Of a DNA stretch of 64,000 nucleotides, positions 19,466-60,395 are shown piece after piece. Under the pieces are notes generated by a model. That model made no database searches. It saw only the letters and a program-made list of their open reading frames with translations, and was not told where the DNA came from. The DNA is from a virus (taxonomy: Duplodnaviria > Caudoviricetes): positions 1 through 64,000 of IMG/VR virus record IMGVR_UViG_3300020049_010822; one strand, given 5' to 3'. Position 1 is the stretch's first letter. Each line of letters opens with the position of its first letter. Made by a program: the position numbers and the translations under genes.

Positions 19466-20064
19466 AAAAAAGATTGTTACTGTTAGAGCCCTATGCCGAT
19501 GAAACTATGAAACACGTACAGGAAATACGCATGTTATTCATAAATAACGGTTGGGAAGTACAGAAACTAACTCCTGATTGTAAGACTTATCATGAAAATT
19601 CCGTACTCATCATTCCAGATACTGGAGGATTAAACGGAAATGCGTCCTATTGTTTCAACGCAGACAGCTGGATGCCCCCACATGTAAAGCCTCAAGATCA
19701 AGGTGTGGAGTATTTTCGGTTAAACAGACTTTTGTACTATGTACAGAAGCATATACCAGTCATCGGATTGGGGTACTCCGCTTATGTTATCTTTGCAGAG
19801 GTTCTAAAAGGTACCCTTCAATTTGGTCCTGACGGAATGTCTGTCGGTACTTCCAAAATAAAGGCTCATCTGGAAACAGAATTGTTTTTCTGCCCTCAAA
19901 AGCACTATGTGTGTGGCGGAATGTTTGCTGAAAAAAATCAGAATTACGGTGAGGAATTAATCATCTTCGCTGAACAAATGTTAAAATATGGAGGTCAAGG
20001 GGGGAATGTTAAGGTCCCAGTACCCAACCCACCTTCCGATACTTCAACAAAGTTAATTATATGA
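19462..20064 (+). CDS. degenerate class I glutamine amidotransferase/peptidase C26-like protein
   Basis: LIIPDTGG and IPVIGLGYSA resemble GATase LLLTGG / PILGICRG but the nucleophile Cys is absent. Confidence 0.45.
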   Translation: MKKRLLLLEPYADETMKHVQEIRMLFINNGWEVQKLTPDCKTYHENSVLIIPDTGGLNGNASYCFNADSWMPPHVKPQDQGVEYFRLNRLLYYVQKHIPVIGLGYSAYVIFAEVLKGTLQFGPDGMSVGTSKIKAHLETELFFCPQKHYVCGGMFAEKNQNYGEELIIFAEQMLKYGGQGGNVKVPVPNPPSDTSTKLII

Positions 20065-20369
20065 ACCCGCAACTAGCACGGTACATTACTGATAGGCACT
20101 ACTGAGTGCTTCGTAGAAAAAAAGATGATTGCCCACTTAATGTCTCCTACACTGTAGAAGGGTTAATGTGAACAACCAATAAATTAGGGAAATCTTTATT
20201 CTTCAAGGATACGATAATCTCTAAAGGAAAGATATTGCCAAGGAATGGGCGGTATGAGGAAGCTTCGGACGTCTATTATGAGAAGTTCGAACCAAAGAAT
20301 CATACTGCTTATCCTTTGCAGACAGCCGAATTACGGTGGTTAGACAAGGCCATGCGAATGTCCTACTAA
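20061..20369 (+). CDS. hypothetical protein, first TGA-recoded gene (102 aa, not in ORF track)
   Basis: MNPQLARYITDRHY[TGA 20103]VLRR...LM[TGA 20169]TTNK...MSY-TAA fills the gap exactly. Confidence 0.65.
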
Positions 20370-20429
20370 TCAGGCTGCTCACTCCCCGCTGTAGTTTTAG
20401 AGGGAGATTGAAAACTTAAAATTGAATAC

Positions 20430-21050
20430 ATGGAGAAGATTGCAAACCGCTGGTTCAAAGGCTTTATGATTGCCACCACGGTTACATTGCTTGTTATCAC
20501 TGGTTTTGGCTGGCACCACCAGTTCAAAATTAACAACGAGCAAAAATCGACAATAAATCAGCTAGAAGCACAGGTAGAAATACTTAGCGAAAATATGCTG
20601 AAATTTAAGGCGAGCATGGATACTTTGAGAGAAACCCACCCCTACATGAGTAAAAAGTGAAGGGGCCGGAAGACCTCGTGTGCCAGCGGCACCTTTTTCG
20701 GATTCTTGCTATATACTCCCGTTGATACGGCTGTAAGCAAGGAGTTAGTAATGGCTTTATCAGATTACTCTGGGCCTAAAGCTAAAATTAATTCTCTGAA
20801 ACGACATTACAATCATAAATCAAAGCACTATTGCGGTAAAGCCGTTGATCTTGCTTGAGATGAAACTGTGATTAGTTTCTTAATATCTGATGAAGGACAG
20901 ACGTGGCTACAAAAGCACGGGATTACATTTTACATTGAAGGCAAACCCGGATCGAAGCGAGTATCTAAATATCTCGGCGACCAGAAAGCTGCCCAATTTG
21001 TATTCTTTAATCCGGATGCAACAGCAGATCACGTACATTTGAATGTATAA
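20430..21050 (+). CDS. membrane-anchored peptidase M15-like (Zn D-Ala-D-Ala fold) cell-wall hydrolase, TGA-recoded
   Basis: reading TGA 20658 and 20856 as sense joins TM + coiled coil to SKHYCGKAVD...DHVHL (SxHxxGxAxD / HxH). Confidence 0.8.
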
Positions 21051-21098
21051 AAGGGACAGGGGGAGTAGTCCATCTCCCCCTTTTCCCAAGTTAACATT

Positions 21099-21368
21099 AT
21101 GGACACTTTAGTAACTATAGTGCTTACTTTTGTTGGCACTAAAATCGCTGAATACCTCTGGCAGGTACTACAATCTATCCCCGTAGCCGTAACAGCTACA
21201 AAACAGACAATGACAGACAATGCAACAAGTAATTTACCAAGAGAATCAGGAGACATCTCGATTGTCGGGATTCGCCGCAATAGAAATGGTGGTTACACAG
21301 CCGTGGACCATTACATGAATACGGGACGGGCAGATATCATTAATCTCCGAAACGGAACTCAAAGATAA
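21099..21368 (+). CDS. hypothetical protein (overlaps polA N-terminus)
   Basis: 89 aa with hydrophobic N-terminus; uncertain. Confidence 0.35.
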   Translation: MDTLVTIVLTFVGTKIAEYLWQVLQSIPVAVTATKQTMTDNATSNLPRESGDISIVGIRRNRNGGYTAVDHYMNTGRADIINLRNGTQR

Positions 21369-23175
21369 AATATCCAAGTATGAATACATCGCATTGGATA
21401 CGGAAACTGTTGGTGATTTTACTGATCTCTATGATCGTAAGGTTGTCATGCTCCAAATGGGTAATGATAGAGAACAGTTTGTATGAGACACTCGCAAGAG
21501 TTCACCTCAAGCTTTTTTACATTGGCTCTCGACCAGAGATACGGTTATTATTGGGCACAACATAAAATATGACTACCAAGTCATAAAGACAAACTATGAT
21601 GTGACCTTAGAGAATGTTTGAGACACCATGCTCGCTGCGCAAATAGCAGAGTGTGGATTAGACGCCCCCAAAGGCCACTATACCTTGGAGCAGTGTGTTG
21701 CACGATATGTGCGACCATATTATACTCGTCAAGGTAATTTATTCGCCCCAACAATCACAAAAGACATTAGGAGCTCCTTTGCTCAAGTCAGCAACGCTCC
21801 CTTTACCGCAGAGCAAATTTACTATGGAGCTTTCGATATTGAAACTTCATATGCACTGCATAAAAAATTACTCCAGATCGGAAAACAAGACGATCTACTC
21901 CGTATATTTGAGCTAGAATTTGATTTTCTCAAAGTACTAGGGGACATGGAGTTAAATGGTGTTTATCTAGATGCAGATAAGTGGTTAAAAACCGCTAGAT
22001 CTGTAGAAGAAAAGACCGCAGGAATAAGAAAACAACTAGACGAGCTGGAACCAATAAATTGGGATTCCCCTAAGCAAGCAGTTGTCTACCTGAAAGGTGT
22101 GGGAGTTGATGTGCTAATCCTGGATAAAAAGACCGGGGAAATAAAAGAGAGTGTAGGCAAAATCGGCCTCCAAAAACAGACAGCCCGGTTTCCCATTCTC
22201 AATACTTACCTTGAGTACAAAACGCTTAAGAAAAAAGCAGTTGCGTACGGAGAAAAGTTTTTAAGGCACATCAACCCCCATACGGGTAGAGTTCATAGCT
22301 CGTTTATGCAAATAATGAGGACAGGTCGAACATCCTCCACTAGTCCTAATATACAAAACATCACAAGAGGAGACGTGTATAGGTCCGCATTTATGGCGGA
22401 AGAGGGGAACACATTGGTTGTGGCAGATTTCTCTAATCAGGAGATGAGAGTGATAGCAGACAAGTCAGGGGATCCAAACCTTATTGCCGCGTTTAAAGCT
22501 AACAGGGACGTTCACCTTGAGACTGCTAAGCTTACTTTTGATAATCCTGATTTAGAAAAAGAGTCTGAAGAAAGACAAATGGCTAAGTCCATTAATTTTC
22601 TTGCCGCATTTGGTGGAGGGGCTTCTAAACTTTCTGAATCCTTTGGCATAGCTTTAGCTAAAGCCAGATCAATTTTAAAAATGTATTTCCTAGCCTTCCC
22701 CTCTTTAAGAGCTTATTTTGATGCTCAAGGAGTTCTAGCAAAGGCTAATGGTTATGTACTATGTAATCCAGTTTCTGGACGTAGGTCATATATTCCATTT
22801 TGGAATAAGTACAAAAAATACCAAAGTTATCTAACAATAGCAAAAGCAAAGGGCCATGATCCGCATCCTAAAATTGTAGATGACTATTCATACTATGATG
22901 CTAAAATACAGAGGTGGTCACAAAATTTACCAATCCAATCAACCGCAGCTGATATAAGTAAAAGAGCGGGCGTTCTTCTACGTAAATATAGTAAGAAGAT
23001 TCCGTTCAAGATTATAATATTCGCACACGACGAGTGGGTACTTGAGTGCCCGCTTGAAATCAGTCAAACCGTTTCAAGAATACTAGAGAAGTGTTGTCTG
23101 GAAGCTTCTCGTGAGTATACAACTCATCTAGACATTCCGGCGAAAGCAATTGTATCACTAACATGAAAAAAGTAA
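21220..23175 (+). CDS. polA: family A DNA polymerase with 3'-5' exonuclease, TGA-recoded
   Basis: ExoI ALDTET, ExoII GHNIKYD, [TGA]DTM, motif A ADFSNQEMR, B RQMAKSINF, C HDE; TGA at 21316, 21484, 21619, 23164; start 21220 or 21286. Confidence 0.95.
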
Positions 23176-23182
23176 TTAAAAC

Positions 23183-24274
23183 ATGATTGAAAGTACCATT
23201 ATTTTTGCTATCTTCGGTGTCGGGATGGCTCTGTTGATGTGGCGTATGTACCATGTTGCAAAAGACGACCCAGAATTAGCTGGTCTTGAACCGGCAGCCC
23301 TCTTGGGTAAATCATTCATCAAATACAATCTAACGTACTTGATGGGTCTTCAACTCTGCGCACTTATCGCAGAAGCTGCCCTTTTGGGTTCAGTTGTTGA
23401 CGAAAAGACTAACGTGGCGGTCAGGATGTTCTTACATCTTGTGATGGCTGCAATTAGTACTGTGGGGGCATTTGGCTTAGCCAAGTTCTTTGGTGAATTT
23501 GTGTATGTATTTGTAGCTTGGCCAAAAAGAGCTCCTGGAGTTAGCATCGGTCTGATGATGAGTAATTTTGTACTAACTGCAATCGCTTTCTTCTTTGCAA
23601 TTGGAGCGCCCATATTTAACATGTTAGCTCTAGCTAACGCACTCCATAATACTGTCCAGTTGGATGTATTTATGGCGGCACTTCAGGTGGAATTAGGGTT
23701 CAAGCCTTTAGCTTACCTAACCTATATTATCCAATTAAATGGATTACCTGCTAACTACGCTCCGTTTGCAAGTCTGCATTCGGGTATGGTATCCTCCTTG
23801 GGCATCACTTTCTTCCATTTAATATTGACGTTTTGGGAGATTGTCTACACCCTTAAACTGGCCTTGGAATCCAAAAGTCTTCTGGATACTATTCTTAATA
23901 GAACAGTAGGCCTCGACGACAAAGAAAAGAAAAAGAAAGAGGATAAAAAGGAAGATAAAGAGGACAAGGGTAAAAAGATAGACGGTAGAGTACAAATCGA
24001 GGCCGCTCTTGGTTTCTTGAAATTAGATTCCAAGGATGTGGCAAAGTGGACAGAGAATCTTTTGGAGTATTTAGATGTTGCCACACACGATCAAAAAGCA
24101 GTGGCCACCAGAACAGCGACTATCGCTGCGCTGCATTTCCAGATAAAGAGTTTGGATCGTGGTAAGAAAACTGCGGATAACCGTACCCCTGAAAAACTTG
24201 CGGATGACATTCGTAAAGAGCTGGAAGGGTGGACCAATAACAGCATCACCTTACCAAAAGCAAAAAACGGATAG
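23183..24274 (+). CDS. multi-pass membrane protein with charged C-terminal domain
   Basis: about 6 hydrophobic segments then KE-rich linker. Confidence 0.7.
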   Translation: MIESTIIFAIFGVGMALLMWRMYHVAKDDPELAGLEPAALLGKSFIKYNLTYLMGLQLCALIAEAALLGSVVDEKTNVAVRMFLHLVMAAISTVGAFGLAKFFGEFVYVFVAWPKRAPGVSIGLMMSNFVLTAIAFFFAIGAPIFNMLALANALHNTVQLDVFMAALQVELGFKPLAYLTYIIQLNGLPANYAPFASLHSGMVSSLGITFFHLILTFWEIVYTLKLALESKSLLDTILNRTVGLDDKEKKKKEDKKEDKEDKGKKIDGRVQIEAALGFLKLDSKDVAKWTENLLEYLDVATHDQKAVATRTATIAALHFQIKSLDRGKKTADNRTPEKLADDIRKELEGWTNNSITLPKAKNG

Positions 24275-24312
24275 GGGGGCACGTTTGTTTAAAAGATAAA
24301 TGTCCCCATTAT

Positions 24313-25059
24313 ATGGACAAGAAACAGTGTGACAGGTGCCTCATAGAAGCTACAGGCTGTGCTCAGTGTGGCACTATTCCAGCTTCTTACGCGTTTATCA
24401 ATTCTAAACCTATATGGAAAGCATCCCATAAGGGTAGATGTTGGGAATGTGCTTTAGAAAAAGCTGTGGATATTAATGAGGTCTGTAGGTCTTGCAATCA
24501 GGACAACCATGAGATGAAACTTAGGGAAGTAGTCCTCTGTAAAGCATGCGTTTCTGAATACGCTCTTGTCTGCAAGAAGTGTAAAGAAGATACGGATGTT
24601 TATGCAGAAGGGTCAAACTATTGCCCTACGTGCTTTTATGGTGATGATTTCAAGACCGTTACTATAGACTCACGCCATCCAACTGAGGTTTGTGTCTCCT
24701 GTGGGGAACTGTCACACTTAAATAAGGACAAAGAATGTAAGAATTGCTACGTGGAGAAAACCATGAGTAATGCTTATAATGATGATTGGGGCAAGACAAA
24801 GGTCTGTCCTGAATGTCGGAAAATCACCAAACGAGGTAACAAGATATGTACAGCTTGTCAATTGAAAAAAAGAAGTGTAGCCACCTGTTTTGGGTGTTCT
24901 TCTCGTTTCCAAAAGACCAGTAGGCACGATACATTTTGTCAAGCCTGCAAGAGAAATCTTGAAGTTGGTATATGTACTTCTTGTCGAAGAAATGATGTTG
25001 AGAATTTTGATGAGCGAGGCTGGTGCACAAAGTGCCAGTACGATAACGGACCATTGTAA
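24313..25059 (+). CDS. poly-Zn-ribbon Cys-rich protein
   Basis: 15 CxxC motifs in 248 aa. Confidence 0.75.
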   Translation: MDKKQCDRCLIEATGCAQCGTIPASYAFINSKPIWKASHKGRCWECALEKAVDINEVCRSCNQDNHEMKLREVVLCKACVSEYALVCKKCKEDTDVYAEGSNYCPTCFYGDDFKTVTIDSRHPTEVCVSCGELSHLNKDKECKNCYVEKTMSNAYNDDWGKTKVCPECRKITKRGNKICTACQLKKRSVATCFGCSSRFQKTSRHDTFCQACKRNLEVGICTSCRRNDVENFDERGWCTKCQYDNGPL

Positions 25060-26249
25060 TGAGAGATAAAATACAGGCTGAGGCGCTCGCCGCATGAAAA
25101 GGAGCAAATAAGTGGGGAACAATCATTCTCCCTACTTCACTTGGGAAAACATACGTGGGTGTAATGGCTTATAAGTCTTTCGAGAATCCCCCAAAGACAC
25201 TAGTCATTACCTCACGTGTGCCCATAGTGCACCAGTGAAAAGAAACTTTTGAAGATAAATTTGGAATTAGCTTTCCAATTGATTATCTTTGCATTCAGTC
25301 CGCCTACAAGATAGACGCTGAGTATGATTTAGTTATTATAGATGAGGTACATAGATCCTTATCTCCGGAGTACCGAAAGGTATTTCAAAATATAAAGACT
25401 AAGCATTTAATCTGTTTAACCGCAACCCTGCCAGAAGAAAAGGAATACCGTGATTATTTGGACTCTATATGTCCTGTAGTATATTCTAAGACTTTGGCTG
25501 AGGTGATAGAAAATAAAGTTATACCTGAGTTCACTATTTATAATTTAGAGGTACCTTTATCTCCTAAAGCAGGAGGAAGATATAAAATATTTGATTCTCA
25601 ATTTAATGAGGGTAATATTCTCTTAAACAAGATTTTAAATACTAATGAACTTTATAAGTATAAGTATACTAATACATTTGATCTAGCTAGAAATAATGTA
25701 AATTCTACTGATAAAGCTTTAGCTGCCGCATGTAAAAAGTATTGGGGTGGGATGCAGATGAGAAAGAATGTGGTTTATAGTAATCCATCTAAACTCATAG
25801 CTGCCAGACAAATTATAGAATACATCGGTCCTGAACGAAAATGACTGTTGTTCACCAAATCTATAAAGTTCGCAGAAGAATTGCAAGGAGTGGTTGGAGG
25901 TGGTATATATCATTCTAAAATGAAAACGCAGGAGAGGAGTGATATCCTTGAGCGTTTTAAAGAAAACGAATTTAACATTCTTATCGCAGTAGACGCCCTT
26001 AACGAGGGAGTAAACGTAGTAGATGTGGATGCTGCTATTTGTCTTTCCGGTGTTTCCACCGAATTGACAAATACCCAACAAATAGGACGGCTTTTACGTC
26101 AAAAAGAAGGTAAAAAACGTCCCATATTCATTAACCTCTATTCTAGAAACACTGTTGAAAAAGGTTGGGTAGACAAAAAAACAGTTGGAGCTGGATTAGG
26201 AAAATACGTCAAATGGATAACAAACGTAAGACAAGTCCAAACCGGTTAG
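25059..26249 (+). CDS. superfamily 2 (DEAH/SSL2-like) helicase, TGA-recoded
   Basis: PTSLGKT, DEVH, LTAT, LNEGVN, QQIGRLLR in one frame via TGA 25095, 25236, 25842. Confidence 0.92.
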
Positions 26250-27352
26250 ATAATTATGTACGATCTTTTGGTACTGTTTTACCTAAAGACATACTTTTTT
26301 ATAGAGCCCCAGACGGAGATAAACACGCACTTTGTGTGTTTTGTGATCGTCACCATGACCACCAACCAATTCTTAGGCATGATTATGCTAGTTCAGAATC
26401 CGCACAAGTAGTAGAAGGTGTGTTTAGTTGTGACGCCTGTGCTACAGTTATTGAAAGAATGGAAAAACGAATCTTGGGGGATCGTCCAGGAGATGTGTTA
26501 GAAAACGCCTTAAAATATTCGTTCGGAGAGCATATTGTTGAAAAAAATAGGGAAAAGAATATCAATAATTTCTTGAATGAAGGAATATTTCCCCCTTTTG
26601 CTTATCTCTATTATCAACATCTACCTTCTAGTGATCCTCTAGAAGCTATGCACCGCATAAATCAATGCGTATTCTGCGACGCGGAGATTCAAGAATTTAC
26701 ACCAGATACTTTTAGAATACAAGCTCCTATGGGTCCCGCAGTTTATCATTTAGATGGCGGTGATTTATTAGTGTGTGGGATTTGTTCTAGTAGAATTTCT
26801 GATGCTATACCAGAGATTCATTTTGACGGTTGGGTAAGAAACACCTTCGTGGAAAAAACTTGTCCGAAGTGTACAGCTTCTTTTTTAATTACTAAAGATG
26901 AGGATGAGTATCAGTCCATGTCTAAGACTAGCGGTCAACACTTATGTCCTGCTTGTGCCTATCGCAATGTGGATTTATCCCATGAAGGCCCTTTGTATTT
27001 TCGCATGCAAGAAACAGACGGGCGACTTAAGAGGTATATGGATTCTCTGTGTAATTTTTGTTCAGAATTCTTCTCCATAGACCAAACTCTATCTGAAGCA
27101 TATGTACTTAAAGCTCATGTAACTGCGGCAGGTAAAATTACTTGTTTAGATTGCTGCTATCAGCAACACCAACCAGTAGCCTCTCTTAAAATAGAGGAAA
27201 TGGTGTGGACTTTTTATTTCAATGATGTCACCAATAAAGCTTTTGGGATTAAAAGAATAATTTCAAAGCCGCATTCAGAAATCAGAGAATTTAGTTCCAT
27301 AGCTGATATGTACAGATTTTTTTCAAGGATAGAGGAGGTGTCTAATGGATGA
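26213..27352 (+). CDS. Cys-rich Zn-finger repeat protein
   Basis: 8 CxxC motifs; ATG start at 26213 preferred. Confidence 0.7.
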   Translation: MDNKRKTSPNRLDNYVRSFGTVLPKDILFYRAPDGDKHALCVFCDRHHDHQPILRHDYASSESAQVVEGVFSCDACATVIERMEKRILGDRPGDVLENALKYSFGEHIVEKNREKNINNFLNEGIFPPFAYLYYQHLPSSDPLEAMHRINQCVFCDAEIQEFTPDTFRIQAPMGPAVYHLDGGDLLVCGICSSRISDAIPEIHFDGWVRNTFVEKTCPKCTASFLITKDEDEYQSMSKTSGQHLCPACAYRNVDLSHEGPLYFRMQETDGRLKRYMDSLCNFCSEFFSIDQTLSEAYVLKAHVTAAGKITCLDCCYQQHQPVASLKIEEMVWTFYFNDVTNKAFGIKRIISKPHSEIREFSSIADMYRFFSRIEEVSNG

Positions 27353-27626
27353 GATAATCTATAGAGGTACCGTGCGTATAAATGTGGATGTAAAACTTTA
27401 CTTAAGTCTGTATAAAAAACTCAATCCAGAAAAGGTTGAATATTGGGCAAGCGGATGGTTGACTGGAATACCATTAGTAGACAGAAGGACTAGAGTACCA
27501 GTAAAAAGTACCTCTAAACACTCCACCATCACCGCAACAATACTTGTACTTTTTGATAACGCTATTGAAGAGTATAATAAGTATTATAATGCTTACGTAA
27601 ACATAAATGCCAACTCCAGTAAGTAA
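27345..27626 (+). CDS. hypothetical protein
   Basis: 93-aa ORF in overlapping series. Confidence 0.6.
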   Translation: MDEIIYRGTVRINVDVKLYLSLYKKLNPEKVEYWASGWLTGIPLVDRRTRVPVKSTSKHSTITATILVLFDNAIEEYNKYYNAYVNINANSSK

Positions 27627-27861
27627 ACGTTATCTTTCTAGTGTGAAGATTGGGGGTGTACAACCAGCTCAAATACACATTTTTTCTACCAAAACTGGTC
27701 TTTTTGTATTCAAATTATCGTGGCAAAAATTATCACCCCCATCCCCTAACGTAGAAAGCAAAATGTTAGGCCCTTATAAAGCCATTACAGAAGGGGTTGA
27801 AAAGTGTTTGATTTGGCACGGTAAAAAGTTCAAGTATTTAACGGACTACGATTATGGCTAA
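27607..27861 (+). CDS. hypothetical protein
   Basis: 84-aa ORF. Confidence 0.55.
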   Translation: MPTPVSKRYLSSVKIGGVQPAQIHIFSTKTGLFVFKLSWQKLSPPSPNVESKMLGPYKAITEGVEKCLIWHGKKFKYLTDYDYG

Positions 27862-28138
27862 GAAAAAACGTAAAAGTACGGAAGAGCTTTGGAACGACTG
27901 GGAACATGAAGTACGTAGCTCCAGTATTTGTCAAATAGATTTTGAAACGCAAGATGGAGTTTTTTCTGTCTTCGTCGAGAGAAATCAAATTAATGGTATC
28001 GGATACCGTGCTAATTTTGTAGAAAACGGCTATCACTTAGAAAATATTGCTCATACTACTTTGGTAGGTGTAGTGGTATTAGCTGTAGAAACAGCTTTTA
28101 AGAGTTACCGTGCTATTAGCCTTTTAAGGTATGAATAA
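27854..28138 (+). CDS. hypothetical protein
   Basis: 94-aa ORF. Confidence 0.6.
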   Translation: MAKKKRKSTEELWNDWEHEVRSSSICQIDFETQDGVFSVFVERNQINGIGYRANFVENGYHLENIAHTTLVGVVVLAVETAFKSYRAISLLRYE

Positions 28139-28622
28139 ACGCACTGTAGAATCACTGTTAAAAGTACACTTGACCCACTTACATGTTGGATGTCAAAAGT
28201 ACATGAAGGAAGAAAGTGTAACTTACAATTTTACAATTCATTTCAAGCATAAATACCAATTGGTTGTTTTGCAATCCGTTTGGTATAAAGACATTATACC
28301 TTGCATATTAGACGCCATCTCTATTTTGGAAGCTCTAAATGAAGAGGTAAAAGCAAATTGGGCTATACTTCACGAAGAAATGGTCGTAACAAAATATCTG
28401 ATTAATGAAATTAACGCAAAGTATAATACAAAAGTTGGAGAAAGAGAAGATATCCGTAGAAGAAGCTTTCTACCTCCACTTATTGACAACCGGAGAGATA
28501 ATCTGGATCGAAAAATTCAAAAATGCGCCTTGAAAAAGGCTCAGGTCTCGAAACTTAATCGAGAAACATACGAACCACATTTCAGAATCTGGGAGAAGTT
28601 TGATTTTGAGCTTCCTGGATGA
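28131..28622 (+). CDS. hypothetical protein
   Basis: 163 aa to TGA (TAA at 28637 if read through); 3' part overlaps next gene. Confidence 0.5.
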   Translation: MNKRTVESLLKVHLTHLHVGCQKYMKEESVTYNFTIHFKHKYQLVVLQSVWYKDIIPCILDAISILEALNEEVKANWAILHEEMVVTKYLINEINAKYNTKVGEREDIRRRSFLPPLIDNRRDNLDRKIQKCALKKAQVSKLNRETYEPHFRIWEKFDFELPG

Positions 28623-28962
28623 AGATGGGGTATCTAATCAAGAAATTGGATATTCCCCTGCATTCGAACTTTTTTGAAAAACTTTCCCAGGTTCTGATAG
28701 ATATTTACATTGGCCAGAAACTAGAAAATTAAGAGTGTCTAAAAAGGACACTTACAAAGCGTACTTGCATGCCTTAGATAATGTATCTTCAGATAATTTA
28801 CTAAAGGCTTTAAATCAAGACCTTGAAAATAGAAGAGCTCAAGTAGGAAAAGAAAATCCTTTTAAATTTATGAAGGGATCATTTCGTTGGTTAGAAGATC
28901 AAATGTACAATGAGGTTGAAGTACCACAAACTTTAACGTTTGCAAATGACACACTATTATAA
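28405..28962 (+). CDS. putative replication initiator/helicase loader, TGA-recoded
   Basis: FELF[TGA 28675]KTFP matches the FxxFWxxYP motif of phage replication proteins; TGA 28531; directly upstream of DnaB. Confidence 0.7.
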
Positions 28963-29942
28963 TGTTAGAAGTGCGGCACATATCAAGTGGTATTGATTCC
29001 ACAATAGACTATATAAATAAGCTACGAACAGGGAGAATAAAATCCTTAAAGACGTCTTTTTCAAAACTGAATAAAGCGTTACTTAATGGAGTAGATTGAA
29101 ATCGAATCTTTACTGTTGCAGGTAGATCAGGATCGGGAAAATCAACAATTTTAGAGCAAATAAAACGTGACTTTATTGATCTGAACGATGAACCTTTTGA
29201 GATACTATCTTTTGAATTTGAGATGTTAATGGAAGATCAACTTACAAGGTATGCTTCCTCTCAAACCAAAAAATCTCTAAAGGAAATTTATTCTGCTGAG
29301 GCCCCTTTAACTCAGGAAGATTACGATGAAGTAGTGAATTTATTAGAGAAACGTAAAAAGGTTCCTATATATTATGTAGATAATCCCGGTACTCCCGCGC
29401 AAATACGAGCTACAATTCTTAACTTTGCTATGGAGAGGAATCTAAAAGATTTGGGTAAGGGATTAGTTGTTTCTATAGACCACGTATTGCTTACAAAAGG
29501 AAGACAAGGAGATGCTGAGAAAGCTATAGTAGATGAGCTTATGTTTACTTTACTTGAGTTAAAGAAGTATTTTGCTTCTATAGGACAGAGGTGTTTATTT
29601 CTAGTCCTATCTCAACTAAACAGGGATATTGAAAGAGAAGAAAGAGTATTAAATCCCGTATTACATTTCCCTACACGTAACGATCTCTTTGGAGCTTCTT
29701 CGATTTACCATACATCCGACTATGTGTTAATTTCACATCGTCCAGCAGATGTGGTTGGTATGCCTGAATACTATGGGCGACCTAGGGAGAATTATCCTAA
29801 GGGATTACCGACAAAATATCCTGCAGATCCAAAACGTGATATGGTATATTGGCATTTAATTAAGGAAAGGTTTGGTAAGCCTGTAATTATACCGATGGCA
29901 GAAAACTTTAAACATTCCTCAATAGAGGAAGTAAATTTATAA
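28962..29942 (+). CDS. dnaB: DnaB-like replicative helicase, TGA-recoded
   Basis: GVD[TGA 29097]NRIFTVAGRSGSGKS, FEFEM, IDH, LSQLNR, KERFG. Confidence 0.93.
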
Positions 29943-29944
29943 TT

Positions 29945-30604: not shown

Positions 30605-30636
30605 AATTTTCAAAATTCAATTTAATTAAATTAATT

Positions 30637-31218: not shown

Positions 31219-31226
31219 AACTTAAC

Positions 31227-31260
31227 GGGGGCGGGGTCTTTGGATTTCGCCCCTTTTTAT
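31227..31260 (+). terminator. intrinsic terminator
   Basis: GGGGCGGGGTC-TTTG-GATTTCGCCCC-TTTTT. Confidence 0.8.
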
Positions 31261-31268
31261 TTACAAAC

Positions 31269-31547
31269 ATGACACTAAAACATCTCATAAAAAATATCAA
31301 GACGTTAACAAGACTTCTTGAACAAAATCCCAAACTACTTGATAACATTGTTATTGTACATTACTCATGTGAACTTTTGATCTGGGATAACGAAGAGAAG
31401 AAAATCTTAATACATAAAAAACCATTTGCGGTTTCAAATACATTTCATCTTTGTCTTGAGTCTCAAGTGGAAGCTTTTTTATGTGAAGAGTTTAAGGTCA
31501 TAAAGTTCATACAACCTGTCGTGTTAAATGGTAGCCAGAGATTATAG
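31269..31547 (+). CDS. hypothetical protein
   Basis: 92 aa, AACATG start. Confidence 0.55.
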   Translation: MTLKHLIKNIKTLTRLLEQNPKLLDNIVIVHYSCELLIWDNEEKKILIHKKPFAVSNTFHLCLESQVEAFLCEEFKVIKFIQPVVLNGSQRL

Positions 31548-50000: not shown

Positions 50001-53000
50001 CGCTATTTCAGCTGCTTGTTTCTTCACATGCTCTCTCACTGCTTTCAAAGCTTGAGCTTCAGTCATAGAATCTACACTACCAGAAAGTCCCGCAAGTTTC
50101 CATTGTTTCCAATTAGGAACTCCATTTTTATCTTTAGCTAAATAAACTTTAGTGTTAGCTAAATCTGGATTATCTTTTGGGTCGGGTCTATTTTTCTGGG
50201 CTTTAATGATGCTAGCTAGAGCTTTTGAAATCTCTTGATCTTTTTCTGTCTGTCTTAAAGCTGTAACCTCTACTGCCTGTATTGTGGTACGATTAGAAGG
50301 TATGGGCAAGAACTGAAAATAGGAAGAACCAAAACCAACCTTAGTGAAGAATCCAAATACTATATTACGTTTTCTAAAGTCTTTTAAGTTCTCTTTAGTT
50401 AGGTATTTAGCGTCTGAATCGTTACCCTTAGTTTTTAAACCATCGTGATCTATAAATCCAGTAATGTTATTAATACCATTAAAGAATATGTTATCTTTTA
50501 AGAATCTATCATTAGAAGTTAATTTCTTTCTGTCTTTATTAAACTCGAAAGTAGAAAACTTTTTATGAGGTAGATTCTTACTAGTCTTATCTAAGGCCCT
50601 CATTATAGAGGTTAATAACTGTGACTGATAGGAACCATCTATCCAACCATAAGCTTTTTTACCATCCGCTCTAGTGTAAGAGTGAGTTTCAGATAATTGA
50701 TAGTGGTTATTAAGAACATCTACTAGATTACGTAATAACTTAGTTTCTGATTTTAATAGATTACTACCTCTTCTCTCATCATTGTATTCCTCTATACTCT
50801 GATTCTCTTTAACCCCGGCTTTATACTTTGCTTGCATTTCCTCTAAAGCGGGATGAAAGCCTTCAAACATAATGTCTAACTGAGCACTAGTAACTTCAGT
50901 AATTTTTCTCTTAATCCCTACTACATTAATAAAGTCTTTTAATGCTTCTCGTTTAGCTTCTACATCACTAGTAGACGCCTCACGTATTTTACGTAAAAGA
51001 GCGTCTGTAAATAGTGTATTACCTCCCAAGCTGTTTGTATACTTATCAAACTTATTAGCTACGTAGCTTTCATGGATTTGTTTACCCCCACCTGTTTTAA
51101 CTCGTATATACCTAGATTTGTACTCACCATAGCTGTACTCATCTATACCCACATGAGGTAAATTCTCTCTTAAAGAAGATACCGCTGCAAGTAACGATCT
51201 GACAAAATCTAAATCTTCAAATAAGAAGTACGCTTTAGAGACACTAGTATAATCTGTTTTAGTAACAGCAGCTATACTTTTTATTAAATCATCCATACTT
51301 CCCCCTTCTATTTGGTGAAGAGTTCTGTATTTAGTTGGGTTCAACTCAACGTCTCTAGTCGTTGCTTCTCCTACAGGAGAACCATCTGTAGATACTAAAG
51401 CATATAAACTTTTGTTTGAAGCGTCCTTTCTAAACGCAATGTCTTTACGTAATGCGGGGTCATTAAATTGATTTTGTATTCTTCTTACAGTGGAGAGCAT
51501 GAATCTTCCAGTTGCTGTCCTAATATTAGGAGATAACTTGGAAGACTTGGCTGAGAAAGAACTGAATGCTTGTTCCAGAGCGTCTAATGCTGTCTGCATA
51601 GAATCTACTGGAATAGAAGCCACTCTAGGGAGTATAATAGAGAAAGCCTCTCCTAATGCAGCATAATCTTCTTCTCCATCTTTTAAATACTTAATAGATA
51701 TAAGACGTTGCTTAACATTACCAGTAAGTTTAATTGAAGGATCAGAGAGCTCTGTATCGAAGGTCTCAGCTGAAAGGGCTGACATCTCACTGTCCAGAGC
51801 TGCTAATTCTTTATCTAATTTTTCTCCAGCTTCAATTCTAGTATTTAATTCCTCTTGCTGTTCTAATAAAGCATCCAACTTTTGTTGTTGCCGTTCGTCG
51901 TATAGACGTCTAAGTGTATCTCTAGTTTGTGCTTGTCCAAAGAAAGTATCAACAAAAGACTTGGATAACTTAACATTATCCAGAACCTTACTTAAAGCTC
52001 TCTTACGAAAAGCTAGTTGTTCTCCAGTATCTTCTGGAAAGAATTTCTCTGGAGTTCTACGCATCTCTGCAAGACGTTCAAAAGTAGCGGTTATAACTTC
52101 TGAAAAAGACATTACTTTACCATCTCGTCTAGAAAATTCGATATCAGTAAAGTTAGAGATGATAGCTGCCTTAACAAACTTGTATTCGGCTAAGTTATCA
52201 AAGTTAGCTGCTATGTTTATCTGAGCTCTTTCTACTTGTCCGTTCTGGATTTTTCTATTATAAACTCCACCTTGAATGGAACTAAAGAATTTTTCTAAAG
52301 AAGATAAGTTATTAAATGTAAACCCAAGTAGACGTAACAGCTTTTGCCAAAACACTTGAAACACATTAGGCTTCTTTGTTATAGAGTAGGTCTCAAAATC
52401 AACAGCCAGTTTTTCTTCTAAAGCTACTTCATCTAAATTACCCCATTTCTCTTTAGCTAGAGATAATACTTGAACTTGTTCAGCAGGAGTTAAATATTCC
52501 CAGAAGATTTTGTGGAACATCTCGTGCCTAACTGTTCTAGATCCTATCTTACCGTTAGTATTTAGTGCATAGTTTATGACCCCATTTTTATACAGACCCC
52601 AAAGTGTTTCTCCTCGGTTATTTACAAGCTCGCCGAATTTAAACATTCTAAACACTTCAGAGCCACTTTTCTTTTTAAAGAAAGATTTAAAGAGTTGGAA
52701 AGTACTAGGAGGATTAATTCTAGTCATTAACTCTTCTACTTCTTGAGGTGATAGATCTTCTCCAAGATCTTGGTCTACACCTTGGAATATTTGAGCTCTT
52801 TCAAATTCACCTGCCTCTACTACTTTCGCAGCAGCATCATAATAGTCTTCTTCCTCGGTAAGCTTTTGTAATTCTGCTTTGAAAGCTACGTTATCAGGAT
52901 GTTCTAACAGAGCATTGAATTCTTCTTCGTTATCCGCAGATTCTAATAATCGTTTAGCGAAATCAAAAAGTGCTCCTTTAGGTGCTGGTATTGCTGGATC

Positions 53001-56000
53001 ATCGGTATTCTTTAACAATTTCCTTACTTTAGAGGATAGGCTAACAATTTCAGCTAGTGTAGGAAATATATCCTCCATGATGTTTACTTCATGTACAGGA
53101 TTTTGTGTCTTATAAGAATTATTTATGTCATTATAAGCTTGAACTACTTGGTTAAAACGTACCATTAATTCATCATCCGACATGCCTAAATCTTCCGCAA
53201 TAAATTGTACTGTGTCTAAAAAGTCTTTTTCACTTCTATTTTTACCCGAATAATAATCTAACCGAGCTAGATCGGAAACCATCATTAAATACTTAGGGGC
53301 ACTAACCCCAAAGATTTTAACAAATACAGCTCCTCTGATGTAATCTCTAGAAGCCAAGATCCCAGCGCTTCTGCCTACACCCTCCACTTTAAGTGAGGTT
53401 ACAAGCTCAGCTTCAAGTTGTTCACGAAGAGTTAAAGAACTTTCTCCTACATCTTTCAGAGCTTGGTAAATATTCTTATTATTAGTAGTAACTTGAGCCT
53501 TCTTAGTATTTTGTCTATACGACATTACTGCACCTTCAAAAGTAGCTTCATTCATGAATAACATAAATTCAGCAACTACTTCTAACGGATACTTAGTTCT
53601 TAGTGTCTTAGGTAAGACTTTAGTGTCTCTAACATCTCTAATTAGTTGTTGGAGTGGGGAAATCTTTTGAACTTCTACCTCTTGCGGAACATCAGGAGCT
53701 AGCATATCGGGAGAAGTTCCTACTACGATCTTAGTAGGTACTGCCTTTACGAAATTAGTTTGTAAGATATCTTTAACTCTTACTCCGCTAGTTGTAGATT
53801 CTGCTGAAGCATCAAACTCAGCTCCAAGTGGAGTTCTAATTCCAAATCCGTCAGAAAGATTGGAAAGTCTGCCAGAAGAGTCTAATCCATCTACAAGTAA
53901 TCCTTGAAGATCTTTTGTAGTTATAGGATTTAAATGTACAATACTTTCTTCTCCTGCCTTGATAATCTCTTTTACAAACGTAGCTCTAGATGTGTTGCCC
54001 AAACCTCTTTTCTCTAAACTATCATTATAAACTTTAAGTCTATTGATAAGTTTATCTTTCATCTCCGCGTTATAAGCTAAGCCTTTTTTACGAACAAACT
54101 TAATAGGACCTAAAAGACTTACACCAGAAGAGTGTGTAACTGTTCTTTTCTCTGTAGATTTATAGTCAGATTTTCTATAATCTCTAAGTATTACATTAGT
54201 CCCGTCCGGAAGAGTGGTTATAAAGTTTTGCTTACCTATAGCATCAATAGCTTTTTGGGCAGCTCCTTTGTATTGTCTAACTTCTCCCTCTCCTACATCT
54301 CCGTGTACTAGAATATCCATTTCGTAAGCTAACTGCATCAATTCCTTAGGAATTTTATCACTGCTTACTGGAGGAAAAACACCAATTAAATTCTCACTGT
54401 TAAACAACAGCACATCTTCTACCTTACCTCCTTGCGAAGCTCTGTAAGCTTTTGCTAAAGATATAACAAGAGAATGAAAAGGGTAATAAGATTCTCTACC
54501 TATAACAACAGGTTTACCATTTCTAAGCTCAGAAAGTTTTCCGGGTAATCCTGAAGTAGCTAATAAAGTCTCAAATCTCTTTAGCTTATCTAGAAAAGCG
54601 TATAATTGAGATAACTGAAAGTCCGGTCTGTCCGGGGTGTTTTTATTAAGAATGGTAGGCACTAATCTAATAAACTGATTTTTCATAGGTTGTCCACTTC
54701 TTGTCTTCATATTATATATGATAAGATATGGAGGCCCTAATCTAGGTCTTTGTTTATCTGACTTAGCACTTGCAAACCACTGGCGTACTTGCTTTTTAGT
54801 TTTAAAGGATACAATCTTAGTGTGGTTGTCAAAGTTATTTATAATATCCGCATAGTTTTCAATGTAATCCCCAGGATTTTCCCCGTAAAGAGTTTTGAAA
54901 TATGTGGTTAGGATAGATAGCTTTTCTAACTTACCTTCTCCATCTACATCCGCTGTAAAATCATCAGTAGGTTGCGGAGAATAGATATATTTAATATCTG
55001 CTGTAGTTGGCTGTATAAATAATTTATACGAAGATTCAATTGTTTCATTAGGATTTATTAAACCTGAAAGTCCCGTTTCAGAATTTTGAAAGGTGTACCC
55101 TTTTAAAGTAGCTAAAGAAGGGATCTTTAAATTGGTTTCAAACTGCCCAACTTCATCTTCACTAAGTATAGCAATCTTTCTAAAAGCAAACGGAGCACCA
55201 TCCTCTAAGATGGGTTGTAATATTAAATATCTAGTAGCTGCAGATCCATCTCTTTTTGGAGTTACATCTTTTACAACTATAACTTCATCACCAGATTGAA
55301 GCGCTGGTAAATCTTCATCTAAATTAGAAGAGGCTAATACATTAGAATCTGGATTTCAAAGACTATGAGTGCCTTCTGGAACTAATATTTCTCCGCCTTC
55401 ATCTACATCTTGTTCATTACCTTCATCAGCAGTTTCCTGCTCATCTTCTGTATTGGTCTCTTCTTCCTCAAGCTCTTCTTCTACTGCTTCTATTTCCTCT
55501 TCTTCAGTAACAACATCCTCAGTAATCTTAGATAGGATATCTATTTGAGTAGTTAAAGTTTCTATAGCAGTAGTATTCTTGGTTTCCTTAGCAGCCATTA
55601 CTTTCTCTAAAGTTTGAGGGATACCTCTGTCCTCTTTAAAGGTAGAATCTGGAATATTAGCTACATGTACAAAGGTAGTTGCTCGTGAAATAGCAGTATA
55701 CATCCAGGCATTAAATACCTTGGACACACCTAAAGCCCCACCATCTGTCACTTCTACATCTATGTATACTTCATCTCTAGTGATACCTTGAGCTTCTGGA
55801 ACAGTTAGAATTTCGGCATGAGGGAATTGAGCTTGATACTTTTGTTTCTTTTCTTGTGATCCAACTAATATAGCTCGACTTCTAGAAGGATTAGATAATT
55901 CGCTACTTCTATAAACATTAGCTATGTTGTTTTCTTTCTCGGTAAAGCTACCTATTATATTTGTTGTAGATATAATAGGATTAAGACTAGCCGCAGATTG

Positions 56001-59000
56001 AATATCTTCTACTTTATTAATTGATTTAAAAGCATTCTGAAGATCTACTATCTCAGCTACATCTGAACGGTACGTTACAGAAAGAGGAGATATAGTTTGT
56101 ATGTTCTCTATGAATGGAAGAGTAGCGTGGTCATTAGACATCCGTACTCCTTTCCTATACTCTAGTTTTGTAGCTTCAGATCCTTCCCAATAAGCCCTTT
56201 CAGATATTGCAGGTTCAGCACTAAAGTTATTATCTATAGGGGCTTCAGATACATTCCCTGGTGTGATCTGATTTGGGTCATAAAGAAATATAAACTTAAG
56301 CCCAGCATCTGGATTCTCTCTGTTGTACTTGGCGAATGCTGCTGCAAATTTATTGATAGGCTCATTTAAGAGAGCACCAACTTCATCTACAACAATAAGT
56401 TTTACTCCTTTAGCAAGACCGTTTGTGTTTAGGATATTTGTAAGTTCTTCTACAGTGAAAGGACCTACTGGTGAGTCCAGAGACTCCTTGATATTCTTAG
56501 CTGCTAAAGGTTGCGGAGCTGCTGTTACAATCTCTTCTCCGGACAGTTTTAATACATGCTTTAACAGTTTTGATACTACTAAAGATTTACCCGCTCCTGC
56601 AGGAGCTTTTAATGCAGCTCCATTTTGATATAATTCATTCTGTACTTTATTTGGAGCCATCGTAAAGAGAGCTAACTCTCTAACAACCCGAATTTGGGAA
56701 GTAGATGGTGTAGGTGCAGTAGGATTCTTTTTTAGATAATCTCTAACCGAATTAAGGAACGACACATTATTGAAACCTGCAGCTTTAGTTTGTGCAATTT
56801 GTTCTAACGCTATCAGTTGTGTCTGAAGTAATAATAACTGTTGTAGTTGTTCTGCAGTTGTTACTCCTACGAAAGAATCTAAATTCCTTGTAAACCTTAC
56901 GACATCATAATCTTTTACAAAGTTCTCAAGTGCTAATAAATTCTTTGAGTTAGCATCCGCAGTAGCAGATTCCTTTTTTAATATTAACTGAAACAATCCC
57001 CCAAAACCTCTGGTAGGATGTGTTAATATTATGTTAATATCTTCTGGAGTTAATTTATAATTAGCAGGACTGGTAGTTAAATCGAATACAGAAAGAGCGG
57101 CTAATTGTTCTTTAGCAGAAGTCATTACACGAATCTTTATCGCGTTATAGTCTTCCTCTGTTCCTTGTGCTATCAAATCTGCTGTAGCCATAGATCCTAA
57201 CACTGGATCTAGTTCTATGAGCTTATTCAACTCTGCATTCTCTGGAGCTAATGAATTAACACCAGCAGCATAGTGAAGATCTTCCAGCTTATTTTTTAGA
57301 TCTTTGTTAGCTCTATTTTCCTTTGCTTTAACTAATATTTGTTTTAACGTTTGATGTAGTTTTTTAGCTTCTGTAAGAGCTGGTTTATAAGCTGCATCTT
57401 TCTTAGCTAAAGGTATTAACCCTTTATTAATTAAAATCTCTAATTTAGCTATCTCAGTTTCAACGCCAATAACATTATCATACTCTGGAGAAATATTTTC
57501 CCCATCCCATTGTGAAGCGTTTAGAATCCTATTAGGTGCATTCAATAAACCTTCTACAGCTCTAACTTTAAATACCTTATCATTAGTATTTATTTCAGGG
57601 AAACCTTCTAGATCTTTTAGCTTCTGTAGCACGTTTACAGTATCAGTATCAAGATTACCTAAGGCATCTTTTATTGCTTTCAATCTTTCCCATTCGGCAT
57701 AAGCAGCTTCTTGGTCAGCATCAAAAGCTTCATAGTACTCTAATTCTGATTCACTCCAACCTTCGGATTCAAACTGTGCAAGCAAAGCTCTATAAGGAGT
57801 ATTAATTCCATCTAGATAAGATATTATAATATCTCTCAGCTTAGCTACTTCATCTGGATAGAGTGTGTATTCGTTATCTAAAATTCTATTAGTTAATGTT
57901 CTAAGAGAGTCTGCAGATTCTGGAGTGTATCCAGTTTTGGTTAGATACTTAATAAACAGATTTATAGCATCAGCAAAGAAAGCGGTTTTAGCTACTTTTA
58001 CTTTATCTTGATGTTGTAGCAACTGCCCATTCTTGTCCGCATAAGTTTCTAGATCTGCTTCAGTAAATTTATCATTAAGAAATATTTCTCTAGACTTTTC
58101 TCTAGAGGTTTTACCGTAAGATAAAATACCTTTTGATACAGCTTCTTTATACGCATTAAAACCTTTTTTAGGTTCCAGCATCTTAGTGTAAAGCCCGCCT
58201 AGTTCTTCTCTAGCCTGTACTAAATCTTTACGTTTTGTAGAGAGCTCCGCTACTAATGTTTCTTCTACAGAATTTTCCTCTGTAGTCTTATAAGGAAATA
58301 GTGAATCTAGTTGATCCGTTTCTTGGAAAGCCGTTTGTATTGTACGAAGACGCTCATAATTAGAACTATTAGTAATAACATTATTTATCTCTTTATCTAC
58401 ATCTTCTATTAAAGTATCTAAGTTAACTATTCTACCACCAACTTCAGCTGCAGTGTCTCTGAATCTTCTTAGAGCTTCATCTGTCTTTGGAGCAATAATA
58501 GCATTATTAGTAGATAGATAATTTGCTTCTAATCTTTCTATATGTTTTTTCCAACGTTCTACAGTAGTTTCTATTTCTTCTGGATTCTCAATGCCCGCAG
58601 CTTGTAACTTCTCTGGAGAGAGTTTCTTGTAAGAATCTAGCTTTTGAAGGAGAAGATCAGTAGAGCCATGCTTGAAAGCCTTTTGAGCTAAGTTGTTTAG
58701 TTTAGATAATTGAAATAAAGAAATCTTAAGATTATCCGATCTATCTTTAGAAGCTTCAGATTCAATGAAATTGTCAAACTCAGAATGCAGCTTAGCATCA
58801 GCTGCAAATTCTGTCGCTTTGGACTTATCGATTAGAGGAGCCCCATTCTCATCTACTGGAAGTTCTCCGGGAACAGTATACTCCCCTTTCTCATTAGCAT
58901 TATAAGTTTCTTTAATTCTTTGATAGGTTTCAGGATTAATTTCTTGTACAATCTCTTCTGACTCATCAAAATATTTAGTAACTCCATCCTCTGTTTTTAT

Positions 59001-60395
59001 AACTAACTTACCTTTCTTATCTTTAGTCTTAGACATTATACTAGAAGACATAAAGTCAGTGTAGGACTTTTGAAGTTCGTTAGTAGCTAATTCCCTAGCT
59101 TCACGAATAGTTCTAGCCTCTCTTATGGCTCCGTGTCCTGCCGCAGCAGTAAGTGCCGTTTGTCCCGCACCTATTAAAGATCCTAAAGCGGTAGACTCTA
59201 AACGAGCATCATCTGAAAAGTCTAATCCGTGTAACAAGAAATCTTGCGCTAAATCTTTACCGCTTTCTAAGAAAGATCTGTGTAGATTAGAAGCATCGTT
59301 TACTTTTTGTATAGAGTATTGTAGATCCTCTTCAAAACCTTCTGATAAACCTTGTTCTAAGAACCTTTTAGTAAACATTCCTGCGGCATGCCCTTCATCA
59401 AATAAAAATTTATCGAATCCAGAAGCGTAGGTAGGTTTCTCCGCCATGTTCTCAATACCATTCATTATCTTCAAACCTTGTTTGTTAGTTCTAGTAGCTA
59501 CAGACGAGGGAGCGTAGATGGGTTTAACAAGCTTGGTGAAGAATCCATTAGTTGCAGCACCAGTCAACATATTTAACCAAAACACATTAGTTAAAGAGTT
59601 CTCTGCAGCCTTTTCTATTTCTTGGTCAGACATGTTATTCTTGCCCTCCATCCTATCCCTATGGAGTTTATCTGCAACAGTCTTCTTAGAGTCCATTGCC
59701 TCCATAGCAGCTTCATTAGTAGTCAAGAATACGTTAAGAGCAACCTCGTCAATGTTACCTGCTATCTTAGCTAGATTAGGAGCAGCAAGCTCACTAAATA
59801 CAGCTGTAAAATCTTTACCTTTAGCTAGCTGGTTTACTAATCTAGTACCCATTTGAGCTTTACCTAGGAGACCTGCTAAGCCGAATGACTGTGCTAAGAA
59901 TCCTATTGTCTCTACATTGGCTGTGGCGAGTTGCCCCGGAGCAGTGAACAGTTTTTGTGCAAAGCCCATATCTTGATACTTGGCTTCTTGAAAGTGTGGA
60001 AACACCTCATCTCCATAAGCATTAATGGATTCCGCCATGTTCATGAATGGATTGTCATCGAAACCATCAGAGAAATTACCTCCAGTTAAAGCGGAGAAGG
60101 TTCCTTTACCTAATCCTGTGATTCCACCTACAATCGCTGGAACTCCGGATACAGTCTTTACACCCACATCTCCAGCAAAGTTTCCGAACGCATCTAACCA
60201 GGATTGATTCTGATAACGAACATCGGTCTGATCTGCAAAGTCTTGAAGACCTTTATCATAGTATCCGGCTCCTGTTAGATTTCTTGCTACCCAACTACCT
60301 TTGGTACTGTCATAGTATCCTCCTCTTTCTGAGGTAACAGGATTTGTGTATTGCCTATCTTTTAGGCCGCTGGATATTGTACTTAAATCTGGCAT
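47028..60395 (-). CDS. giant virion RNA polymerase polyprotein (~4160 aa; exons 60395-48474 and 47588-47028), TGA-recoded
   Basis: single TGA 55358-55356 followed by 215 stop-free codons into the 2103-aa ORF; SF1 helicase motifs (APAGAGKS, VVDE, AQG, YTAISRA), zincin HEMFH, DAEGF, GFRIP; splicing restores catalytic GSDYDVD. Confidence 0.88.
47589..48473 (-). mobile_element. group I intron (885 nt) inside the RNAP catalytic motif
   Basis: 5' exon ends in U paired to G in P1 (TCCGAT/GTCGGA), terminal G at 47589, core P AATTGCTGGGAA, Q AATCAGCAG, R GTTCAACGACTA, S AAGATATAGTCT; in-frame exon ligation. Confidence 0.93.
47591..48337 (-). CDS. intron-encoded LAGLIDADG homing endonuclease, TGA-recoded (248 aa)
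   Basis: IAMLLGDG and LAIWFMDDG motifs; QKEYLQ[TGA 48211]K. Confidence 0.92.

Follow-up and report, generated by a model that had tools for sequence, protein, structure and literature searches.

Can a single phage genome give the codon TGA two meanings, stop in one set of genes and tryptophan (Trp, W) in another, and if so, where does the meaning change and what changes it? We examined a stretch of 64,000 nucleotides (the window) taken from the start of one viral contig of 99,851 bp (IMG/VR record IMGVR_UViG_3300020049_010822; 99% complete according to CheckV). Genes lie on the plus strand from 64 to 38881 and on the minus strand from 99227 down to 38938. An earlier reading of the window from its letters alone (the sequence-only reading) had proposed two genetic codes, with TGA as stop to the left of position 20061 and as Trp to its right. 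We refer to the plus-strand genes up to this boundary as block A, to those from 20061 to 38881 as block B, and to the minus-strand arm as block C. We found that the switch at 20061 exists as proposed, but that the genome is better described as one contiguous zone of ∼26 kb that is, judging from its predicted genes, compatible with the standard code and spans the contig ends (from 93.4 kb on one side to 20.06 kb on the other), plus a recoded remainder.

Based on its marker genes, the phage belongs to the Crassvirales, in an uncultured lineage related to Cellulophaga phage phi14:2. It encodes a crAss-type TerL (phrog_6681 in PHROGs), portal (phrog_6547), and major capsid protein (MCP), and giant virion proteins head its leftward arm. 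The MCP is 92 to 94% identical to a protein of the relative L043 that carries the Pfam domain PF23898 (Crass_capsid). The closest cultured TerL was that of phi14:2 (34.6% over 97%), followed by those of Flavobacterium and Bacteroides crAss-like phages, and a megablast search of GenBank phages returned no match to the region from 20 to 32 kb. The replication regions of nine relatives were compared, among them two that are not recoded (L005 and L009). For codon counts, open reading frames (ORFs) were called with table 11 in block A and delimited by TAA or TAG elsewhere.

Sequence comparison confirmed TGA as a stop codon in block A. The block contained 98 TGG codons and no internal TGA, and its genes ended in TAA (16), TAG (8), or TGA (12). 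It is important to note that the zero count is partly circular, due to the use of table 11 for calling these ORFs. Non-circular support came from the relatives: the TGA ends of block A genes align with TAA, TAG, or TGA ends of their orthologues, and at orthologous TGG sites in six recoded relatives, TGA was found in 0 of 141 cells. Twelve of the 36 genes terminate exactly at TGA, 6 of them in ATGA start overlaps, and the overlaps that the sequence-only reading had listed (at 6848, 7415, 7805, 14353, 18570, 19462, and 20061) were all present. The same reading had a GH73 glucosaminidase ending with its domain, and the 285-amino-acid (aa) protein encoded at 9337 to 10194 indeed stops at a TGA 6 residues beyond the Pfam domain end. 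Further, the next in-frame TAA or TAG lay a median of 5 codons past TGA stops, compared with 25 codons past TAA or TAG stops (P = 0.002). A search for relatives with the early protein encoded at 2949 to 3686 found none, so that the comparisons for block A cover the part beyond its early 9 kb.

The boundary itself is a single ATGA. Orthologues of the gene that it closes (19462 to 20064) end at the same position with TAA (L006) or TAG (L007), and codon 37 of the gene that it opens (20061 to 20369) is TGA or TGG in 9 of 9 relatives. Scans for promoter and terminator consensus sequences around the boundary gave no informative excess over shuffled controls.

In block B, the same kind of comparison confirmed TGA as a Trp codon. 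We counted 36 in-frame TGAs and 71 TGGs, such that TGA made up 34% of the Trp codons, and the stops were TAA and TAG. At least 26 of the 36 TGAs are robust; the rest are either N terminal, possibly upstream of the true start, or 0 to 4 codons from a TAA or TAG. With three more on the minus strand of the window (one each in the gene at 43513 to 47034, an intron-encoded LAGLIDADG ORF, and a giant virion gene), this agrees with the ∼30 interrupting TGAs counted initially. At 25 TGA sites of block B, recoded relatives had TGA (65) or TGG (34) in 99 of 127 cells (78%). The non-recoded relatives L005 and L009 had W at 16 of 29 cells opposite these sites (55%), a level like that at ordinary TGG sites (23 of 48). 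Individual positions were consistent with this: codon 649 of PolA was W in 21 of 21 homologues reaching that site, codon 134 of PolA was opposite W, F, or Y, and phi14:2 had W opposite helicase codon 13 and primase codon 183. We rejected selenocysteine and glycine (code 25) as readings of TGA because the aligned residues were W or aromatic or hydrophobic; among the eight commonest residues opposite TGA sites, G was absent and C occurred once.

Gene calls under the two codes diverged by region. From table 11 to table 4, coding density dropped from 0.844 to 0.787 in block A and rose from 0.759 to 0.840 in block B, where the median ORF lengthened from 128 to 189 aa; in block C, it rose from 0.937 to 0.983. 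The TGA share of Trp codons in block B differed from that in block A (Fisher's test, P = 2e-12) and from that in the minus-strand arm (P = 3.6e-6). In all recoded relatives, the same A/B boundary was present and TGA made up 18 to 35% of the Trp codons of block B, even though PolA identity among the relatives sharing these features was only 51 to 82%. Many individual sites were TGA in every recoded relative. Purines followed 29 of 32 sense TGAs in block B, compared with 43 of 71 TGGs, which hints at selection on codon context.

The minus-strand arm is sparsely recoded, with 141 TGGs and 16 in-frame TGAs (about 10% of Trp codons) between 38938 and 99227, and with TAA and TAG as stops. Recoding was thus densest in the replication module, as had been noted from the window alone, and this held in three genomes of the clade (about 30 to 34% TGA in block B versus 6 to 16% in late genes). 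The bias was also seen inside relatives' genomes, with 15/30 in replication genes versus 2/34 in L004/L029 and 18/42 versus 6/32 in L002-3/L043. The MCP and portal genes contained no TGA. TerL codons 27 and 80, both TGA, align with W or TGA. In the 1,173-aa virion-arm gene, the TGA directly precedes a conserved A.DLFKYA motif, and at this codon the closest homologue encodes W; homologues of this gene (1,100 to 1,250 aa) cover its full length in one stretch. The TGA of the giant gene falls within a conserved EGTHSL[W]NP, with W in two homologues and other sense residues elsewhere, and its relatives are single proteins of 3.9 to 4.7 thousand aa that span the site. We considered the TGAs at 44989 and 55356 as gene boundaries and rejected this, as homologues are single proteins across both.

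The giant virion gene (47028 to 60395) encodes about 4,160 aa and is split by a group I intron; the closest relative has an uninterrupted ORF of 4,158 aa, and we set the exon junctions by alignment to an uninterrupted orthologue, P0245. The homing-endonuclease ORF within the intron has its own sense TGA inside the LAGLIDADG domain, at codon 43 (48209 to 48211). On the same strand, outside the window, the MCP gene (genome positions 85377 to 87676; L011:4377-6676) likewise consists of two exons, 87676 to 86771 and 85988 to 85377, separated by an insert of about 780 nucleotides (nt) with weak group I intron matches.

What could change the meaning of the codon? The sequence-only reading had postulated an early-expressed readthrough factor and suggested a search of the rest of the genome for a tRNA(UCA), a release factor, or a tryptophanyl-tRNA synthetase (TrpRS). 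We found a tRNA(UCA), located not in the early plus-strand block but beyond the window, where the minus-strand arm has its 5′ end. Neither release factors 1 and 2 (RF1/RF2) nor TrpRS was represented by a domain match (PF00472, PF03462, or PF00579) in six frames of the 99%-complete genome. The anticodon loop of the tRNA is CUUCAAA; an anticodon UCA should read both UGA and UGG by wobble rules. Aligned with Escherichia coli trpT (a comparison sequence picked by annotation), the tRNA matches in the acceptor stem AGGGGUG/CGCCCCU, the A1-U72 pair, and the G73 discriminator base, and it has a resembling, Trp-type anticodon arm, which are features of bacterial tRNA-Trp. ARAGORN with default settings reported only a tRNA-Lys and left tRNA(UCA) undetected. 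A search of IMG/VR with its exact anticodon arm and a blastn search against E. coli genomes were without match.

The presence of this tRNA tracks recoding in the clade. Using a covariance model built from four tRNA(UCA) copies, we searched the regions upstream of TerL in relatives and found tRNA(UCA) there in the recoded L043, L016, and L019. L013 and L017, both with almost no TGA, carry a version with a CCA anticodon, and the non-recoded L041 and L042 had no match to the model within 10 kb of TerL. We conclude that the suppressor arose from a phage-borne tRNA-Trp by a change of anticodon from CCA to UCA, because the UCA form occurs in recoded relatives, the CCA form in barely recoded ones, and neither near TerL in non-recoded ones.

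The tRNA(UCA) gene lies within the ∼26-kb zone, which joins block A to the initial 6 kb of the minus-strand arm, where a GroEL-type chaperonin is also encoded. In the genes of this zone, TGA is used as a real stop, internal TGAs are lacking or only C terminal, and most often a backup TAA or TAG is found a few codons on. The minus-strand part of the zone contains TGAs at just two codons, both C terminal in the gene at 98540 to 98887, where relatives have W. The chaperonin gene is directly upstream of TerL and is kept there in all relatives, recoded or not.

TABLE 1 Features of the contig discussed in the text (positions are those of the contig, which the window shares)
Feature	Position	Strand	Basis or remark
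Block A	64–20064	+	36 mostly small ORFs, standard code, many unknowns; products include two GH73 glucosaminidase-domain proteins, a MoxR-like ATPase, and an AAA ATPase
tRNA-like gene	4136–4267	+	Rfam tRNA, 46.6 bits; acceptor, D, and T arms intact
tRNA-Lys(UUU)	6257–6330	+	ARAGORN; not a suppressor
ATGA junction	20061–20064	+	TGA closes 19462–20064; ATG opens first TGA-containing gene, 20061–20369
PolA	21220–23175	+	PHROG/Pfam
SF2 helicase	25059–26249	+	PHROG/Pfam
DnaB-like helicase	about 28962–29942	+	PHROG/Pfam
Sak4	29945–30604	+	PHROG/Pfam
Primase	31528–32502	+	PHROG/Pfam
UDG	32881–33582	+	PHROG/Pfam
Resolvase-like ORF	34294–34875	+	4 TGAs
Exonuclease	34649–35698	+	PHROG/Pfam
Virion-arm gene, 1,173 aa	43513–47034	−	One sense TGA, codon 682 (44989–44991)
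Giant virion gene, exon 2	47028–47588	−	186 aa plus stop; 68% identity to C-terminal 188 aa of P0245
Group I intron, 885 nt	47589–48473	−	Rfam RF00028, 42 bits, plus 3′ fragment
LAGLIDADG homing-endonuclease ORF in intron	47591–48337	−	phrog_11023, 1.9e-21, residues 5–200
Giant virion gene, exon 1	48474–60395	−	One sense TGA, codon 1680 (55356–55358)
GroEL-type chaperonin	93412–95019 (L011:12412-14019)	−	phrog_5725, 8e-130; outside the window
tRNA(UCA)	96383–96455	−	Rfam tRNA model, 42.9 bits (gathering score 29); outside the window

We consider it probable that the phage uses stage-dependent opal suppression, in which its own tRNA(UCA) enables the genes outside the ∼26-kb zone, and that production of replication proteins is slowed or postponed until this tRNA has accumulated. 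Early in infection, only the host code would be available, and genes of the ∼26-kb zone would be translated correctly. As the tRNA accumulates, presumably charged with Trp, it would compete with host RF2 at UGA codons and have them read as Trp; genes outside the zone would give full-length products only once the suppressor acts, with a timing and an efficiency that we infer. Each suppressed codon would cost yield, which likely explains why TGAs are most frequent in low-copy replication enzymes (34%, with three or four TGAs apparently tolerated) and rarest or absent in abundant virion proteins. The replication proteins would be delayed or throttled for as long as the tRNA is scarce, and a lock on replication until the factor appears, as the sequence-only reading had it, is plausible.

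Several observations weigh against this interpretation. The tRNA(UCA) is atypical: its T loop is CUCGAAC, compared with UUCGAAU in bacterial tRNA-Trp and code-4 tRNA-Trp(UCA), its D loop is likewise atypical and lacks the GG pair, and its CCA end is not encoded. The relative L014 has TGA in TerL, yet tRNA(UCA) was not found in the 10 kb upstream; in L014, the tRNA may be elsewhere, or other factors may exist. In addition, the ATGA overlap at 20061 leaves no space for a promoter or terminator, so that blocks A and B may share transcripts and the boundary may then be purely translational. Finally, in three block B genes, a TGA precedes TAA or TAG by 0 to 4 codons, where stop and Trp are indistinguishable.

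In the replication module, a local exception is also conceivable. If all TGAs of the resolvase-like ORF are read through, it overlaps the exonuclease gene by 227 nt. The TGA at codon 125 of this ORF coincides with the start of the next ORF, and TGA may therefore act as a stop there, even within the recoded block.

Could the pattern have arisen with no regulatory purpose? TGG codons might drift to TGA wherever a suppressor is already present and be purged from early or highly expressed genes, in which case the blocks would simply reflect when and how strongly the genes are expressed and would not be a replication lock. We regard this explanation as possible, if somewhat unlikely. TGA and TGG interchange freely at the same sites among close relatives, late-gene TGA density in relatives ranges from 0/37 to 11/21, the abundant MCP and portal are free of TGA, and the bias toward N-terminal positions is modest (46% of TGAs in the first third of the gene versus 27% of TGGs; P = 0.025). 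Drift is less easily reconciled with a boundary and a block B TGA share (25 to 35%) that persist across relatives as divergent in PolA as those compared here, with single sites that are TGA in all recoded relatives, and with the purine excess after sense TGAs.

Alternatively, the suppressor tRNA might mainly attack the host through readthrough of UGA stops, with the phage's own TGA codons as a secondary accommodation. Such a role has been proposed for crAss-like phages (Yutin 2021 and the zeta-crAss paper), and L013 and L017 keep a tRNA-Trp-like gene at the same locus despite being hardly recoded. The anticodon of these two genes is CCA, however, which is not that of a suppressor, and the UCA form co-occurs with recoding in the clade; we therefore consider this explanation improbable.

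If the whole genome used code 4, because the host either decodes TGA as Trp or contributes the suppressor, the TGA stops of block A would be coincidental. Readthrough at these stops adds only 0 to 13 codons in most cases and would barely alter the products, and published surveys often find no phage suppressor in code-4 phages. We nevertheless judge this very improbable, as TGA was absent from within block A genes and from their orthologous TGG sites, a third of the block's genes end exactly at TGA (half of these in ATGA overlaps), orthologues have TAA or TAG at such ends, table 4 lowers coding density there, and the phage encodes its own tRNA(UCA). Moreover, the closest cultured relatives infect Flavobacteriia, which use the standard code.

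A chimera of two phages with different codes, or TGG-to-TGA sequencing errors, can be excluded for practical purposes because the boundary and the TGA share recur in recoded relatives: the A/B boundary is present in the independent assemblies L001 to L004 and L006 to L008, gene order, boundary, and many identical TGA sites are common to at least six independent assemblies (JGI, ENA, Logan, and IMG/VR; different samples and pipelines), and base composition is unbroken across 20 kb.

A split code as such has already been described for phages of this kind. Block-wise reassignment of TGA to Trp in crAss-like phages with suppressor tRNAs has been published (Yutin 2021, PMC7886860; Mgcod, 10.1101/2022.06.29.495998), and these cases resemble ours in belonging to the Crassvirales, in the partial nature of the reassignment, in having a standard-compatible block and a 5′ suppressor tRNA, and in TGAs that align with TGA or TGG. 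Sup-CTA tRNAs of crAss-like phages have likewise been reported from the 5′ end of the recoded strand, where tRNA(UCA) is located here. Mgcod also described code blocks together with dual-coded early blocks, which match the backup TAA/TAG pattern of block A, and detected Sup-TCA tRNAs in just 3 of the 17 complete genomes with code 11/4 (10.1101/2022.06.29.495998). Borges et al. proposed a model of early standard-code genes followed by later recoded genes, and noted that the recoding of replication genes is variable, with most of these genes recoded in Lak phages (10.1101/2021.08.26.457843). The TGA-recoded Jade and Agate phages and the TAG-recoded Lak phages, with early standard-code genes and then a suppressor tRNA, follow the same model as the one that we propose here; the code-change operon of Jade phages, however, encodes RF1 and TrpRS, neither of which was found in this genome. 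The zeta crAss-like phage Lera (PMC12386605) also combines TGA-to-Trp recoding with a tRNA-Sup(TCA) and has TGAs in its TerL, RNA polymerase (RNAP), and helicase genes, but it comes from the gut and carries 26 tRNA genes, and the majority of the genes that it recodes have structural or lysis functions.

Three points are distinctive here. First, in published crAss-like cases the switch coincides with a change of coding strand, whereas one boundary of this genome lies within a single coding strand, at an ATGA overlap inside a co-oriented array. Second, the usual crAss-like gradient, in which replication and transcription genes are standard or dual coded and late genes are recoded, is reversed: recoding is heaviest in replication genes and lightest in late genes, and this is kept in three genomes of the clade. 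Third, the tRNA-Trp-derived suppressor is divergent and escapes ARAGORN.

Comparison with phi14:2 (NC_021806) bears on the timing of the replication module. The two phages share the two-arm architecture with giant virion proteins at the head of the leftward arm, and the order Sak4, primase, UDG, resolvase, and exonuclease in block B. The annotation of phi14:2 gives it the standard code and a PolB, unlike the PolA found here, and its homologues of block B proteins have W, F, or D opposite TGA sites. Transcription of the phi14:2 replicative arm is early throughout and relies on the virion RNAP, while host RNAP is needed for the leftward arm. By analogy, a similar transcription pattern would plausibly fit a translational delay of replication. 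A stronger version, which we regard as doubtful, is a checkpoint in which early virion-RNAP mRNAs of the replication module would wait for the suppressor tRNA from the host-RNAP-dependent arm, perhaps assisted by the RNA encoded at 4136 to 4267. If true, a translational checkpoint would couple the onset of replication to the successful takeover of host transcription.

The latter RNA is itself unusual. In the tRNA-like gene at 4136 to 4267, 76 nt replace the anticodon arm and fold into an 11- to 13-bp stem tipped by GUUCAGC. A tRNA-like gene of 91 nt is present in the same arm of a relative, L048 (an IMG/VR record of 85 kb; L048:1501-1591, minus strand), and its 10- to 13-bp “anticodon” arm is tipped by GUUCAA. 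We rejected an interpretation of the gene as tRNA-Ile(UAU) with an intron, which was only a weak ARAGORN -i model, and a tRNA-Arg with a 2.8-kb intron from the same program was spurious. A pattern search for tRNA genes with inserts of 60 to 90 nt returned seven unrelated phage loci, which are not homologues of this gene.

Other RNA elements occur close to the suppressor or its counterparts. About 95 nt upstream of tRNA(UCA), outside the window, is a tRNA-like minihelix (genome positions about 96553 to 96612, minus strand; L011:15553-15612) consisting of a 7-bp acceptor and a T arm with GGUUCGAGUCC, and the closest relative has a second weak tRNA match near its tRNA(UCA) (L043:5452-5527). Transfer-messenger RNA (tmRNA) genes lie directly upstream of the tRNA-Trp-like gene in L013 (5128-5389), L017 (5135-5396), and L019 (6944-7226), with Rfam scores of 53 to 55 bits; a tmRNA was not detected in the genome studied here. 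In the early arm of the non-recoded relative L041 (689-748, minus strand), we also observed a Pistol ribozyme match (55 bits; gathering score, 34.5).

This genome is an unusually clean natural case of two meanings for one codon, with the switch at a single ATGA in a co-oriented array, an identifiable suppressor tRNA, and both a CCA form of that tRNA and non-recoded sister genomes at hand for comparison. Such suppressors go unnoticed by standard tRNA finders, a possible reason why code-4 phages have mostly been reported without one. Annotation of genomes in this clade must combine tables 11 and 4 and allow for introns in the gene models. More broadly, recoding in the Crassvirales is not confined to late genes, and this lineage lends itself to testing whether replication is gated or throttled at the level of translation.

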